64,000 bases of DNA from assembly GCF_003334765.1 (NCBI RefSeq), contig NZ_QOWT01000001.1. One strand, written 5' to 3'. The translations under genes and the position numbers were made by a program. The stretch's first letter is position 1, and each line of letters begins with the position of its first letter. The notes beneath the pieces were generated by a model that saw only the letters and a program-made list of their open reading frames with translations, made no database searches and was not told where the DNA came from. This DNA comes from Escherichia coli (GTDB lineage: Bacteria > Pseudomonadota > Gammaproteobacteria > Enterobacterales > Enterobacteriaceae). Below, in pieces: positions 2,076-23,620 of the stretch.

Positions 2076-3332
2076 ATGGGATCTGATGCGAAAAACTTGA
2101 TGAGCGACGGGAACGTGCAAATTGTTAAGACCGGCGAGGTCATTGGCGCGACGCAACTTACTGAAGGCGAGTTGATTGTTGAAGCTGGCGGAAGAGCCGA
2201 AAATACCGTGGTCACGGGGGCTGGCTGGTTGAAAGTGGCAACCGGTGGGATCGCCAAATGCACACAGTACGGTAACAATGGCACGCTATCGGTCAGCGAT
2301 GGTGCCATTGCCACAGATATTGTTCAGTCCGAGGGAGGCGCAATTAGTCTCTCTACGCTCGCTACGGTTAATGGCCGCCATCCCGAAGGTGAATTCAGCG
2401 TTGATAAAGGTTATGCCTGCGGTTTGTTGCTGGAAAATGGCGGTAACCTGCGTGTACTGGAAGGACATCGCGCGGAAAAAATCATTCTCGATCAAGAGGG
2501 CGGCCTGTTGGTTAATGGGACAACCTCAGCGGTCGTGGTAGATGAAGGTGGTGAATTGTTGGTGTATCCAGGTGGGGAAGCCAGCAATTGTGAGATTAAT
2601 CAGGGCGGCGTTTTTATGCTGGCCGGGAAAGCCAGTGATACGTTGCTTGCTGGTGGCACCATGAATAATCTCGGTGGTGAAGACTCTGACACTATTGTTG
2701 AGAATGGATCCATTTATCGTCTGGGGACGGATGGCCTTCAGCTCTACAGTTCCGGTAAGACGCAAAACCTGTCCGTGAATGTGGGTGGTCGGGCTGAAGT
2801 GCATGCCGGTACGCTGGAAAACGCGGTAATACAAGGTGGGACAGTGATCCTGTTGTCACCCACCAGCGCGGACGAAAATTTTGTCGTAGAGGAAGATCGC
2901 GCACCGGTTGAACTGACCGGGAGTGTTGCATTACTGGACGGCGCTTCAATGATTATTGGTTATGGCGCAGAGCTGCAACAATCAACGATTACTGTACAGC
3001 AGGGCGGTGTGTTGATTCTAGACGGCAGTACGGTAAAAGGTGACGGTGTCACTTTCATTGTTGGTAACATCAATCTGAATGGTGGAAAACTGTGGCTGAT
3101 CACTGATGCGGCAACGCATGTGCAACTGAAAGTGAAACGCCTGCGCGGAGAGGGAGCGATTTGCCTGCAAACCAGTGCAAAAGAAATTTCACCTGACTTC
3201 ATCAATGTGAAAGGGGAAGTTACCGGGGATATACACGTTGAGATAACAGATGCCAGTCGGCAAACTCTGTGTAACGCTCTGAAATTACAGCCAGACGAAG
3301 ACGGGATTGGCGCAACGCTCCAGCCTGCGTAA
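2076..3332 (+). CDS. ydhQ: Autotransporter-adhesin-related protein YdhQ (418 aa), passenger-like beta-helix repeats without a recognisable beta-barrel translocator
   Basis: ORF-track 418 aa frame; Gly/Asn/Thr-rich repeats typical of AIDA-like passengers (e.g. GGxAxNTVV, GGxLxV); length matches recalled K-12 YdhQ. Confidence 0.85.
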   Translation: MGSDAKNLMSDGNVQIVKTGEVIGATQLTEGELIVEAGGRAENTVVTGAGWLKVATGGIAKCTQYGNNGTLSVSDGAIATDIVQSEGGAISLSTLATVNGRHPEGEFSVDKGYACGLLLENGGNLRVLEGHRAEKIILDQEGGLLVNGTTSAVVVDEGGELLVYPGGEASNCEINQGGVFMLAGKASDTLLAGGTMNNLGGEDSDTIVENGSIYRLGTDGLQLYSSGKTQNLSVNVGGRAEVHAGTLENAVIQGGTVILLSPTSADENFVVEEDRAPVELTGSVALLDGASMIIGYGAELQQSTITVQQGGVLILDGSTVKGDGVTFIVGNINLNGGKLWLITDAATHVQLKVKRLRGEGAICLQTSAKEISPDFINVKGEVTGDIHVEITDASRQTLCNALKLQPDEDGIGATLQPA

Positions 3333-3338
3333 AAATAC

Positions 3339-3372
3339 AGGCGCAACCCGTGAAGGTTGCGCCTTGTCTTTA

Positions 3373-3374
<2 letters not shown>
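3339..3374. terminator. Bidirectional intrinsic-terminator-like hairpin between convergent ydhQ and mdtK
   Basis: aggcgcaacc cgtgaa ggttgcgcct followed by tgtctttatt; 10-bp GC-rich stem plus T-rich tail, placed between two convergent stop codons. Confidence 0.55.
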
Positions 3375-4767
<1,393 letters not shown>

Positions 4768-20519: not shown

Positions 20520-21617
20520 TTACAACGTCGGGTAATCGGTATAGCCTTCCGCGCCGCCACCGTAGAAACTTTCGGCACGCTGTGGGTTAAGCTCAGCTTT
20601 GCGCTGCAAGCGGGCGACCAGATCCGGGTTCGCAATCCAGTCACGACCAAATGCCACCGCATCAATTAACCCTTTGCCGATCAGCGTTTCAGCTTTTTCT
20701 ACTGTGTATGCACCTGCGCCGATAATCGGACCGTGGAAACGGGCGCGTACTTTTTCGCGGAACGCATCAGTATACGGTTCACCCCCCGCCCAATCTGGTT
20801 CTGACATATGCAGATAAGCAATGCCGCGTTTACCCAGTTGTTCAATCAGATACAGTGCATCGGCTTCTTCATTCGGGCCGTTATCTGTGTTCTGGAAAGT
20901 ACCGATTGGTGAAACGCGAATGCCAATGCGATCGGCACCCCATTCTTCAATCCCGGCATCGACCACTTCCAGTACCAAACGTGCGCGATTTTCCACGCTG
21001 CCGCCGTACTGATCGGTACGATGGTTTGAAGAAGGAGAAAGGAACTGATGCAGCAAATAACCGTGAGCAGAGTGGAGCTCTACCAGATCAAAACCGGCTT
21101 CACGCGCGTTAGCAATGGCCTGACGGAAATCATTGACGATACCTGGAATCTCTTCCAGTTCAAGCGCACGCGGCATGGATGTTTCAACACGGATCGCCTG
21201 ACCATTTTCATCGCGCAGAGAAGTACGTGTTCCCGCGCTAAGTGCTGAAGGCGCTACCGGTGCCTGACCGCCAGGTTGCAGGCTGGCGTGAGAAATGCGT
21301 CCGGTGTGCCACAGCTGCACGGCCATATGACCATTTTCAGCATGAACGCCAGCGGTGATTTTTTTCCATGCGGCAATTTGCTCCGGACTATGGATGCCAG
21401 GCGCACCTGCATATCCTTTTGCCTGGGCAGAAATTTGCGTGGCTTCACTAATAATCAAACCGGCACTGGCACGTTGGCGATAGTATTCCGCCATCAACGG
21501 GGTAGGAATGTCACCCGGTTCAATACTGCGCAGACGCGTCAGCGGTGCCATAAAAATACGGTTTGCCGCCGTGATCGCGCCCACTTTCAGTGGGGAATAC
21601 AGTTTTTCAGATGACAT
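20520..21617 (-). CDS. nemA: N-ethylmaleimide reductase, Old Yellow Enzyme family (365 aa)
   Basis: ORF-track 365 aa; OYE-family FMN oxidoreductase; downstream of nemR on the same strand. Confidence 0.95.
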
Positions 21618-21653
21618 AAAGGCTCCCGGTCGTCTGGTGATAAAAAATGCCTG

Positions 21654-22253
21654 CTAAACGGCAGGCGTCGCAATAATGTTTTTTACATGGGCCAGCGCGT
21701 TTTCCAGTGGCTCGAAACTGCGCGAAATTTTGGCCTGCAGATTCGCGCCAAGCCACAGTGCGTAAAGCACTTGTGCCTGTTGCAGCGGTTCGCCACAAAA
21801 GGTTAAACAATGGTTCTCACGGCCATTTTCCAGCGCCTGAGAGAGCAGGGCGATCACGCCGCGAGCACCTTTATCCATCGCGCTGCGCATATCTTCTGAC
21901 AGATCGCACACTTCGGCAGAGAGTTTTACTGTCAGGCAACCACTGATGGTTCCATGTTGGCAAAACTGGTTCAGTGTTTGCTGGTAATAAGCCAGTATGC
22001 GGTCGCGGTAGTTACCTTCGCCGGATTGCAGCAACTCAGTCAGTCGCTGGTGATATGCGGCGTAATGACGCTCAAGCATGGCAACGCCAAACGCTTCTTT
22101 AGAGCGAAAGTAGTGATAGAAGGACCCTTTCGGCACTTCAGCGGTTTTTAGTAATTCGCTTAGCCCCATCCCGGTGAATCCACGTTGCAGGCAAAGTTGC
22201 TCGCCCGTCGCCAGGAGATGTTCGCGAGTATCATGTTCGGTGTGTTTGTTCAT
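21654..22253 (-). CDS. nemR: TetR-family electrophile-sensing repressor NemR (199 aa)
   Basis: ORF-track 199 aa; N-terminal TetR HTH; first gene of the nemR-nemA-gloA cluster. Confidence 0.93.
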   Translation of the reverse strand: MNKHTEHDTREHLLATGEQLCLQRGFTGMGLSELLKTAEVPKGSFYHYFRSKEAFGVAMLERHYAAYHQRLTELLQSGEGNYRDRILAYYQQTLNQFCQHGTISGCLTVKLSAEVCDLSEDMRSAMDKGARGVIALLSQALENGRENHCLTFCGEPLQQAQVLYALWLGANLQAKISRSFEPLENALAHVKNIIATPAV

Positions 22254-22267
22254 GCGTTGGAGTGTAG

Positions 22268-22283
22268 TAGACCAGTCGGTCTA
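22268..22283. promoter_or_regulatory. NemR box: perfect 16-bp palindrome in the nemR promoter/leader
   Basis: tagaccagtcggtcta (TAGACCGACTGGTCTA on the nemR sense strand), 15-30 nt upstream of the nemR start codon; matches the NemR operator as I recall it. Confidence 0.7.
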
Positions 22284-22355
22284 GTGCAAGCAAAGTTGCT
22301 ACTTTGGACATTAACAGCTTCAATAATGGTAATAATCTTATCTGAGGAGGGCGAA

Positions 22356-22595
22356 GTGGCGGAGCAATTAGAGTTCTTTCCCGTCCAGAGCCCGTGCCGG
22401 GGAATTTGCCAGTCTGACGAACGCGGGTTTTGTCGCGGCTGTTTTCGTAGTCGTGATGAGCGTTTTAACTGGAATAAAATGAGCGATGGCGAAAAACAAG
22501 AGGTGCTGCGCCTTTGTCGGCAGCGATTAATGCGCAAATTACGCGCAAATAAGCCAGCGTCATCAGACGAACCGGAGCAACCATCACTCTTTTGA
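22356..22595 (+). CDS. ydhL: DUF1289-family Cys-rich small protein YdhL (79 aa, GTG start)
   Basis: ORF-track frame 22185..22595; preferred start is GTG at 22356 after aggaggg RBS, giving 79 aa (VAEQLEFFPVQSPCRGICQSDERGFCRGCFRS...) as for K-12 YdhL. Start codon choice is uncertain. Confidence 0.7.
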   Translation: MAEQLEFFPVQSPCRGICQSDERGFCRGCFRSRDERFNWNKMSDGEKQEVLRLCRQRLMRKLRANKPASSDEPEQPSLF

Positions 22596-22643
22596 ACCTA
22601 ATCTTGCGTATACTCCTCTCATATCTGATAAGAGGAAGCGATT

Positions 22644-23540
22644 ATGGTTCAGCGTATTACTATTGCGCCGCAAGGCCCGGAGTTTTCCCGTTTTGTGATG
22701 GGCTACTGGCGATTGATGGACTGGAATATGTCCGCCCGCCAGCTGGTCAGTTTTATTGAAGAGCATCTGGATCTCGGCGTGACCACCGTGGACCATGCTG
22801 ATATTTATGGTGGCTATCAGTGCGAAGCGGCGTTTGGCGAGGCACTGAAACTGGCACCTCACCTGCGTGAACGGATGGAAATCGTCAGTAAATGCGGTAT
22901 CGCGACGACCGCGCGTGAAGAAAACGTCATTGGTCATTACATCACTGACCGCGATCACATCATTAAGAGCGCCGAACAGTCGCTAATTAATCTCGCGACC
23001 GATCATCTGGATTTGCTGTTAATCCACCGACCAGACCCGTTAATGGATGCCGATGAAGTGGCGGACGCGTTCAAACATCTGCATCAGAGCGGCAAAGTGC
23101 GTCATTTTGGCGTATCGAACTTTACGCCTGCGCAATTTGCCCTGTTGCAATCACGTCTGCCGTTTACCCTTGCCACTAATCAGGTGGAAATATCCCCGGT
23201 GCATCAGCCGTTACTGCTGGATGGCACGCTCGACCAACTACAACAACTGCGTGTTCGTCCGATGGCGTGGTCCTGCCTTGGTGGTGGTCGTCTGTTTAAT
23301 GATGATTATTTCCAGCCGCTGCGTGATGAACTGGCTGTGGTGGCAGAGGAGTTAAACGCGGGCTCGATTGAACAGGTGGTTTACGCCTGGGTATTACGTT
23401 TACCATCGCAGCCGCTGCCAATTATCGGTTCAGGTAAAATTGAGCGCGTACGGGCAGCTGTCGAAGCAGAAACACTGAAAATGACCCGTCAACAATGGTT
23501 TCGTATCCGTAAAGCGGCACTGGGGTACGACGTACCGTAA
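22644..23540 (+). CDS. ydhF: Aldo-keto reductase family oxidoreductase YdhF (298 aa)
   Basis: ORF-track 298 aa; AKR-like TIM-barrel motifs; synteny. Confidence 0.9.
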   Translation: MVQRITIAPQGPEFSRFVMGYWRLMDWNMSARQLVSFIEEHLDLGVTTVDHADIYGGYQCEAAFGEALKLAPHLRERMEIVSKCGIATTAREENVIGHYITDRDHIIKSAEQSLINLATDHLDLLLIHRPDPLMDADEVADAFKHLHQSGKVRHFGVSNFTPAQFALLQSRLPFTLATNQVEISPVHQPLLLDGTLDQLQQLRVRPMAWSCLGGGRLFNDDYFQPLRDELAVVAEELNAGSIEQVVYAWVLRLPSQPLPIIGSGKIERVRAAVEAETLKMTRQQWFRIRKAALGYDVP

Positions 23541-23620
23541 GCACTTTTAGGAATAGCCGCCGTTCAAAAATGTGTCACTGGTTTACACTTATTCAGGAAT
23601 GCACAATGAACGGAGGTCCT

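Follow-up and report, generated by a model that had tools for sequence, protein, structure and literature searches.

Predicted divergent promoters at the nemR-ydhL junction of Escherichia coli, and conserved terminal motifs that mark the small Cys-rich protein YdhL as a candidate sliding-clamp ligand

We examined the small gene ydhL and the control region that separates it from the repressor gene nemR in a 64,000-nucleotide stretch of Escherichia coli DNA (contig NZ_QOWT01000001.1, assembly GCF_003334765.1), hereafter called the window. The window is E. coli chromosome: the 2-kb stretch around ydhL is present at 95-100% identity in all 5426 complete E. coli genomes, and the gene order, with names taken from the E. 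coli annotation, is gloA-nemA-nemR on the minus strand followed by ydhL-ydhF-sodC on the plus strand (Table 1). The gene is the known ydhL, adjoining the known NemR operator; its status as a y-gene with a domain of unknown function, DUF1289, was already on record, as was the operator itself. An initial annotation, made from the sequence alone, had proposed a 79-codon ydhL starting about 100 bp from a divergently oriented nemR, and both statements hold, as the open reading frame (ORF) matches DUF1289 and the ydhL annotated in E. coli genomes, and the two start codons lie 102 bp apart on opposite strands. We consider it probable that the locus combines two divergent promoters under different control with a metal protein that bears a conserved motif at each terminus. 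The part worth pursuing is, in our opinion, this pair of terminal motifs, which makes YdhL a candidate, for now a tentative one, for a ligand of the beta sliding clamp (DnaN).

Table 1. Positions in the window of the genes, control elements and protein segments discussed in the text
Feature	Position	Strand	Basis
nemR coding sequence (CDS), TetR-family repressor NemR	21654..22253	-	ORF, E. coli annotation, TetR-family NCBIfam matches
Predicted nemR -10 hexamer TACACT (AGTGTA on the plus strand), ending 7 nt before the nemR ATG	22261..22266	-	Sequence and conservation
NemR operator TAGACC-AGTC-GGTCTA, 6-bp inverted arms, 4-bp non-palindromic centre	22268..22283	.	Sequence, conservation
Predicted nemR -35 hexamer TTGCAC (GTGCAA on the plus strand), 17 nt from the -10	22284..22289	-	Sequence and conservation
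Predicted ydhL -35 hexamer TTGCTA	22296..22301	+	TTGCnA 17 nt upstream of the CTTCAAT motif, by inspection
Predicted ydhL -10-like hexamer TTCAAT, within conserved CTTCAAT	22319..22324	+	Conservation
ydhL Shine-Dalgarno sequence GAGGAGG, separated from the GTG by 5 nt	22344..22350	+	Sequence; GGAG-like in most orthologous loci
ydhL CDS, GTG start, 79 amino acids, TGA stop, DUF1289 protein	22356..22595	+	ORF, Pfam, annotation, orthologue comparison
QLEFF, codons 4-8, resembling a clamp-binding motif	22365..22379	+	Invariant in 78 distinct orthologues
Cys cluster C-x3-C-x7-C-x2-C (C14, C18, C26, C29), codons 14-29	22395..22442	+	Invariant in 111 homologues; pLDDT >90
Long basic helix EKQEVLRLCRQRLMRKLRAN, codons 44-65	22485..22550	+	AlphaFold2, pLDDT 93-95; R57 nearly invariant
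QPSLF, codons 75-79, extreme C-terminus behind an acidic stretch (SDEPE flank)	22578..22592	+	Conservation 0.99
YdhL terminal peptides MAEQLEFFPVQ and ASSDEPEQPSLF
ydhF, aldo-keto reductase, 48 bp 3' of ydhL, probable operon partner	22644..23540	+	ORF, annotation, NCBIfam

For comparison, we located nemA, nemR, ydhL, ydhF and sodC in 80 Enterobacterales loci, one per species. The nemR gene is a divergent neighbor of ydhL at less than 300 bp in 48 of the 80 species, lies farther away in 22, and is not found within 4 kb upstream in the other 10. A ydhF gene follows ydhL on the same strand at a distance of 19-139 bp in 70 of the 80, and ydhL is thus more tightly linked to ydhF than to nemR. Because of this linkage, and because a terminator scan found no terminator-like site in the gap between them, ydhL and ydhF probably form one operon and are co-transcribed. 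No Rfam family matched the region 21600-23600. In Lelliottia and Yersinia, a gene for an EptA-family phosphoethanolamine-lipid A transferase is situated between nemR and ydhL (locus L013, positions 2224-4029, and locus L073, positions 2190-3827, both on the minus strand), and ydhL is there divergent from eptA instead of nemR; the products of both genes, the two loci examined in this respect, match the NCBIfam EptA equivalog at 898-980 bits, and the gap is of similar size in Enterobacter and Buttiauxella. Within E. coli itself, IS1A or IS5-family insertions interrupt the nemR-ydhL-ydhF segment in NZ_CP104112.1, NZ_CP148440.1 and NZ_AP031375.1, and the two DUF1289 fragments annotated in the strain with IS1, a complete genome, suggest a natural disruption of ydhL.

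The NemR operator, tagaccagtcggtcta on the plus strand and TAGACCGACTGGTCTA in reverse complement, had been described as a perfect 16-bp palindrome at 22268-22283. Its position stands; the arms are complementary to each other, but the central AGTC is not complementary to itself. TAGACC-N4-GGTCTA has a single match in the window, even with two mismatches allowed, and by our own arithmetic an exact match to the 12 arm bases would be expected about 0.004 times. The arms are almost always kept across species, and the center varies (AGTC, AATC, GATT, GATC, GGTC, ATTC, GTTC). The box lies 14 nt from the nemR ATG in the window. Of the 70 species whose locus includes nemR, 65 have it, at no more than one mismatch, 13-15 nt upstream of that ATG (10-19 nt in four outliers), and they do so regardless of the distance from the box to the ydhL start, which ranges from 69 nt to more than 3.4 kb. 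Where 0.7-2 kb separate nemR from ydhL, as they do in Enterobacter, Lelliottia, Buttiauxella, Cedecea and Yersinia, the box stays by nemR, and in none of the 22 species with nemR more than 300 bp away could a box with up to one mismatch be found near ydhL. We take the operator to belong to nemR, and not to ydhL.

The surroundings of the box are consistent with this assignment. In the predicted nemR promoter, TTGCAC-N17-TACACT, the box would occupy 16 of the 17 spacer nucleotides (in nemR sense, TTGCAC-TAGACCGACTGGTCTAC-TACACT-CCAACGC-ATG), and hexamers of the forms TTGCA(T/C) and TA(C/T)ACT flank it in most of the Enterobacterales intergenic regions compared. If the hexamers are correctly placed, a box that fills the spacer has the classical layout of a repressor operator. 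NemR represses nemR-nemA(-gloA) through an inverted-repeat operator (PMC13178969, PMC5297802, PMC3739934), mutations in the NemR-binding site or the nemR promoter derepress nemRA-gloA (PMC5297802; PMC3045373), and repression at the operator is relieved by Cys-modifying electrophiles and by HOCl (PMC5297802; PMC13178969; PMC3739934). A NemR dimer on the box would thus keep RNA polymerase from transcribing nemR-nemA-gloA until electrophiles or oxidants release the repressor. That NemR binds and is released has been published; the placement of the nemR promoter around the box is our prediction.

The initial annotation had put the box in the nemR leader. The promoter spacer appears to be the better placement, judging by the sequence and by the conservation of the flanking hexamers: with the promoter as predicted, nemR transcription would begin only a few nucleotides from the ATG (about 22252-22256), the nemR mRNA would have almost no leader, and the box would not be part of one. 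The nemR-sense stretch at 22251-22267, TACACTCCAACGCATG, contains no Shine-Dalgarno sequence, and nemR may be translated from a leaderless or near-leaderless mRNA; the same stretch has been named the nemR ribosome-binding site (PMC3045373).

A 16-nt direct repeat, TGCAGGCAAAGTTGCT (22186-22201) and TGCAAGCAAAGTTGCT (22285-22300), is identical at 15 of 16 positions over a distance of 99 bp. Its first copy is inside the nemR CDS (antisense, at codons EQLCLQ); its second, in the intergenic region, covers the two predicted -35 elements and is in part an inverted repeat, GCAAG-CAAA-GTTGC, which is what back-to-back -35 hexamers of the TTGCA type would give. Related TGCAA-N6-7-GTTGC forms are seen in Salmonella and some Citrobacter. 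In addition, a 13-bp palindrome, GTGACGTTGTCAC, occurs between the NemR box and the ydhL-proximal motif described below in Atlantibacter and a Citrobacter only (loci L041, L048, L049 and L031), where it may be the site of another regulator.

On the other side of the intergenic region, ydhL has a conserved footprint of its own. We aligned the 110 nt upstream of ydhL from all loci, which gave 80 unique upstream sequences. The motif CTT[CG]AAT is present in 62 of the 80, and in 57 of these 62 its first base is 36-39 nt ahead of the start codon; by eye, many of these regions also have TTGCnA 17 nt farther upstream. The combination TTGCNA-N17-TTCAAT occurs once in the window, against 0.08 expected. 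The footprint is kept both where nemR is adjacent and where it is 0.7-3.5 kb away (Buttiauxella, Cedecea, Yersinia, Erwinia, Winslowiella). We therefore propose that ydhL would be transcribed from its own TTGCTA-N17-TTCAAT element, with a strong Shine-Dalgarno sequence ahead of the GTG at 22356, together with ydhF. In two close relatives, Escherichia albertii and E. whittamii (loci L003 and L005), the nemR-ydhL gap measures 222-226 bp instead of 102; the additional ~120 bp, which may be a small inserted repeat element, replaces the CTTCAAT footprint, with conservation resuming immediately ahead of the Shine-Dalgarno sequence.

If ydhL transcription begins near 22330 (22328-22332), as this element predicts, the NemR box would span approximately -62 to -47, with its center about 54 nt upstream of the start. 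Its ydhL-proximal edge is 12 nt from the predicted ydhL -35, on the upstream side, and thus outside the -35 and -10 elements; a member of the NemR regulon would be expected to have an operator that overlaps its core promoter or lies downstream of it, and the predicted layout shows none for ydhL. Only 6 nt separate the two predicted -35 elements, which are arranged back to back, so that polymerases at the two promoters could hinder one another. Any effect of NemR on ydhL in E. coli would then be an indirect one, exerted through the competition of back-to-back promoters, would not necessarily have the same direction as its effect on nemA, and would be no conserved feature of the design.

Published genome-wide data can be set beside this prediction. 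Genomic SELEX (systematic evolution of ligands by exponential enrichment) returned nemR as the single NemR target (PMC5934670). In a ChIP-chip study (chromatin immunoprecipitation read on arrays) of methylglyoxal treatment, at a coarse array resolution, the induced RNA polymerase region covers nemR and nemA and at most 60% of ydhL, a value reached in one experiment; ydhF is absent from the induced regions among the matches listed there (PMC3739934 supplement). As far as these data go, they do not show co-induction of nemR and ydhL. The ROSE and Cappable-seq supplements have no entry for ydhL, nemR or the locus coordinates. The idea that NemR occupancy could affect ydhL as well as nemR, which had been put forward from the position of the box between the two genes, consequently finds no support as a conserved feature, since the box tracks nemR, ydhL has its own footprint, and the linkage of ydhL to ydhF is the tighter one.

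The start codon of ydhL, which had been left ambiguous between the GTG at 22356 and a longer frame from 22185, can be assigned with the same comparative set. A start is found at the GTG position in 81 of 81 loci (the 80 species and one E. coli reference), as GTG in 70, ATG in 9 and TTG in 2, and all 81 encode exactly 79 amino acids. Upstream of it, the frame runs into a stop within 0-65 codons, at a position that varies by genome. The conserved start, the Shine-Dalgarno sequence and the unconserved upstream frame together settle the matter in favor of the GTG, and the 136-residue frame from TTG 22185 is spurious, its extension being unconserved and running antisense through the nemR CDS. The terminator scan's only hits, two terminator-like hairpins with T-runs, fall inside the ydhL CDS (22422-22460), at the codons of the Cys cluster, probably by chance.

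YdhL matches the Pfam DUF1289 family (PF06945) with E=3.1e-19 over model positions 1-46 of 47 (residues 12-57), and all 111 aligned homologues match the family as well. A library-wide search yielded 1316 relatives at E <=0.001, and the protein is conserved across Gammaproteobacteria, including Enterobacterales, Vibrio, Oceanospirillales and Pseudomonas-like lineages. Its Cys cluster, CRGICQSDERGFCRGC, had been noted as C-x3-C-x9-C-x2-C; the four cysteines are there, but the spacing, when counted, is C-x3-C-x7-C-x2-C. The cluster has a length of 16 residues in 248 of 254 family sequences, and among the 111 diverse homologues P13, C14, C18, C26, C29, R31, E35 and W39 are invariant and G24, G28 and R57 nearly so. 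In the AlphaFold2 model, the predicted local distance difference test score (pLDDT) exceeds 90 for residues 11-60, which include a short helix at 33-37 and the start of the long basic helix at 44-65, and falls to 66 for residues 1-10 and to 60 for residues 71-79 when the protein is modeled in isolation. Two DUF1289 proteins, P0144 (247 residues) and P0220 (286 residues), carry a different C-terminal extension that includes a hydrophobic segment, in which the region ...LNLRDGPS/REKGN...IG.L..G..VEV...N.SW..I... resembles an SH3-like domain; they are unlike the acidic-tailed subfamily described below.

Because the four invariant cysteines come in two pairs, the knuckle most likely holds one metal center, either Zn or an iron-sulfur (Fe-S) cluster, and the earlier suggestion of metal binding by YdhL seems a reasonable one. 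To our knowledge, its Cys spacing is not a classical ferredoxin or radical-SAM signature. NCBIfam and PHROGs have no family for YdhL, and Pfam has none besides DUF1289; no significant relative was found in the PDB by sequence or by profile, no solved fold matched, and a search of AFDB50 returned DUF1289 relatives only. No characterized Fe-S family emerged as homologous from the Pfam, NCBIfam, PDB sequence or fold searches, and the label "predicted Fe-S protein" that the family carries in some sources is annotation only; homologues are called "oxidoreductase" in some sources. A possible kinship with the eukaryotic "Oxidoreductase-like" domain was discarded, as none of the 111 members has such a Pfam match. 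The literature search found no paper giving DUF1289 a function.

YdhL has an unexpected feature at its two ends, which the Pfam model leaves out. The E. coli protein starts MAEQLEFF and ends EPEQPSLF. Over 78 distinct enterobacterial orthologues, residues 4-8 score 1.00 in conservation and residues 75-79 score 0.99, compared with 0.59 for the linker at 66-74. The same pattern extends over the family. In a set of representatives clustered at 50% identity, Q-x-x-[LMFI]-F is positioned exactly 10 residues before the first cysteine in 111 of 134 sequences, and 44 of 120 tails contain Q-x-x-[LMI]-F within their final 10 residues, with a mean of 0.45 and a maximum of 4 in 1000 composition-preserving shuffles. 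Two to four copies of the motif are found in 33 of the 120 tails, and longer relatives (130-250 residues; marine Gammaproteobacteria such as Thalassolituus and Pseudomonas-like metagenome-assembled genomes) have acidic low-complexity tails with repeated Q-x-[DSG]-[LM]-F, the last residues being ...DDQLDMFS or ...DQFDLF. Statistically, the case for the terminal Q-x-x-L-F motifs is strong, as they occur family-wide far above chance.

These peptides resemble those by which proteins bind the beta clamp. The clamp-binding motif, Q-phi-x-[L/M]-[F/L], resides in disordered termini with acidic flanks (PMC11139829), and among the family tails we find QLSLF and QLDLF, which fit the clamp consensus, along with QLNLF, QLGLF and QADMF, the peptides of Pol V, Pol II and Pol III alpha, respectively. 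The ends of YdhL offer the corresponding setting, namely a terminus predicted to be disordered, an acidic flank and an island of conservation. A 2024 review considers many clamp partners probably undiscovered, and does not list YdhL (PMC11139829); our literature search returned no paper tying ydhL or DUF1289 to the clamp.

Published screens provide a few phenotypes. The ASKA ydhL clone is one of 20 able to grow in H2O2 at three times its minimum inhibitory concentration, and it was also a hit for HOCl resistance (PMC8228696). The Keio deletion of ydhL lost rifampin-induced ofloxacin persistence, together with deletions of recA, recC, recG, recN, ruvA, priA and uvrD (PMC5845583), and showed lower ciprofloxacin tolerance (PMC13131330). 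One TraDIS (transposon insertion sequencing) study, and only one, calls ydhL essential (PMC5821084); the gene is dispensable, given that the Keio mutant exists and that the locus carries an IS1, with two DUF1289 fragments annotated, in some complete genomes. The phenotypes, although weak, are consistent with DNA or oxidant stress.

Taken together, the 79-residue YdhL would be a cytoplasmic protein made up of a four-Cys knuckle, a basic helix of some length and an acidic tail that is disordered, and may serve as a small adaptor, responsive to metal or redox state, which docks onto a hub protein via QLEFF and QPSLF. That it docks in this way, with DnaN as the leading candidate for the hub, we regard as a fair guess that falls somewhat short of probable; YdhL could then fill either a single cleft of the DnaN dimer or the two of them. 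With the same reserve, DUF1289 proteins including YdhL may constitute an unrecognized group of beta-sliding-clamp ligands in Gammaproteobacteria, in which a metal- or redox-sensitive four-Cys knuckle and a basic helix are placed between one clamp motif at the N-terminus and one or more at the C-terminus.

A number of observations weigh against this picture of the locus. Both promoters are predictions; a generic scan for sigma-70 promoters (at least 9 of 12 matches) found none, and the ydhL -10, TTCAAT, is a weak sigma-70 match that lacks the A at position 2. On the protein side, each motif departs from the clamp consensus by one residue, QPSLF by the Pro at position 2 (phi) and QLEFF by the Phe at position 4, and the N-terminal motif, given its fixed distance from the first cysteine, may be structural and part of the fold. 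Some family tails end in DFDFNDFEL or DIDFDDFEL, which are more of the SSB type than of the clamp type, and in three non-enteric DUF1289 neighborhoods no replication gene or other gene recurred as a conserved neighbor. The phenotypes are weak and derived from screens, and polar effects are possible, as the cassette of the Keio strain is located upstream of ydhF, about 100 bp away from the nemR promoter. Finally, we modeled DnaN domains II-III (residues 123-366) fused through a 32-residue Gly/Ser linker to YdhL, using an alignment of 31 rows in which the DnaN and DUF1289 sequences retrieved were paired arbitrarily. AlphaFold2 gave a pLDDT of ~95 for the clamp and 91-97 for the YdhL core, but, with a shallow and randomly paired alignment, monomer weights and no control, QPSLF reached only 50 and did not dock confidently; in the same weak set-up, YdhL residues 1-5 stayed below 50, and both termini thus scored no better than in the isolated model. 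This outcome led us to lower our estimate for the clamp hypothesis.

The alternative that fares best is that the terminal pentapeptides are not clamp motifs at all, QLEFF being structural and the acidic tail either autoinhibitory, by folding onto the basic helix, or a ligand of another partner, of the kind bound by SSB-type tails; we consider it possible, if rather doubtful. It draws on the fusion model without docking, on the N-terminal motif held at 10 residues from the first cysteine, on the strongly basic helix 44-65 opposite an acidic tail, on the D-F-D-F-x-D-F-E-L-type tails that replace Q-x-x-L-F in some lineages, and on the absence of YdhL from the list of known clamp partners (PMC11139829). 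It has to contend with tails whose commonest motifs are exact clamp consensus or copies of those in polymerases, often two to four per tail and at the extreme C-terminus, and with an invariant Gln for which an autoinhibitory tail would have no need; the fusion test, moreover, was a weak one, having no negative control in addition to its shallow, randomly paired alignment and monomer weights.

It is unlikely, in our estimate, that YdhL is a dedicated partner of YdhF, either a metal or redox cofactor protein or a chaperone encoded on the same mRNA, to which the proximity of nemR would be incidental. The close and terminator-free linkage of ydhL to ydhF, tighter than that to nemR, is what such a partner would show, as are the "oxidoreductase" names of some homologues and a 394-residue "putative aldo/keto reductase" of Salmonella bongori (S5N7T4 in the AlphaFold database), the N-terminus of which is 88% identical to YdhL. 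This entry is a YdhL-YdhF fusion call that could be either a real fusion or an artefact of annotation or sequencing, however, and the DUF1289 genes of Photorhabdus, Vibrio and Thalassolituus have no ydhF-like neighbor, nor would a partnership with YdhF explain the terminal motifs. We also know of no aldo-keto reductase that needs a metal partner.

Least probable, and by our judgment quite improbable, is membership of ydhL in the NemR electrophile regulon, with NemR at the shared box repressing ydhL (and ydhF) and YdhL serving as an Fe-S or metal partner of detoxification enzymes, which can claim the divergent arrangement in 48 species, neighbors without exception concerned with electrophile or redox chemistry (the enzymes NemA, GloA and SodC and the aldo-keto reductase YdhF), the scoring of gloA in the same screen as the oxidant-resistant ydhL clone (PMC8228696) and the single methylglyoxal experiment, but is opposed by a box that goes with nemR and is missing from the vicinity of ydhL in loci with an EptA-family gene or other DNA in between, by a ydhL footprint kept in nemR-distant genomes with the box outside the predicted core promoter, by the single SELEX target, by the lack of ydhF among the induced matches listed, and by the resolution of the array around a shared intergenic peak, which would account for the partial coverage of ydhL.

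We return to the reading in which two back-to-back promoters are separately controlled and YdhL is a probable metal protein with putative docking motifs at both ends. Where there was only "function unknown", its terminal motifs supply one hypothesis, that of binding to the beta clamp, which would be inexpensive to falsify. If the hypothesis is true, a non-enzymatic and possibly redox-sensing ligand would join the clamp hub, thiol, oxidant or electrophile stress would be linked to the traffic of replication and repair on the clamp, and the results of the quinolone-tolerance, persistence and oxidant-resistance screens would acquire a rationale.

Comparison with known systems places the different parts of the locus at different distances from what has been described. 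The NemR box was reportedly recognized as the operator of the nemR-nemA-gloA operon by Umezawa et al. in 2008, and the element in the window does not differ from it, being at the same site upstream of the same gene with the same TAGACC...GGTCTA; our comparison adds to it the conservation of the arms only, a spacing to the nemR ATG that is fixed throughout Enterobacterales, and a predicted promoter spacer that the box fills. As a member of DUF1289, also known by the COG name "predicted Fe-S protein YdhL", YdhL is typical in its full-length hidden Markov model match, its four cysteines near the N-terminus and its size of about 80 residues; since the Pfam model covers residues 12-57 only, it omits both terminal motifs. 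Locally, the C-x7-C-x2-C followed by a helix is shared with B-box and zinc-knuckle clusters, and the top PDB profile match, although not significant, was the B-box and coiled coil of TRIM5. The clamp partners with terminal motifs (Pol II, QLGLF-COOH; Pol IV, QLVLGL-COOH; Hda, N-terminal QLSLPL; Pol III alpha, QADMF) resemble YdhL in having Q-x-x-[L/M]-F in a disordered acidic terminal segment; YdhL, a candidate, differs from them in that it has no enzymatic domain, carries one off-preference residue per motif and did not dock confidently in the fusion model. In Bacillus subtilis, the small replication regulator YabA binds both DnaN and DnaA and has a Zn-binding C-terminal domain. Although no sequence or fold similarity was detected between YabA and YdhL, which differ in architecture and phylum, YabA sets a precedent, by analogy only, for a small Cys-rich metal-binding protein that has the sliding clamp as its hub.

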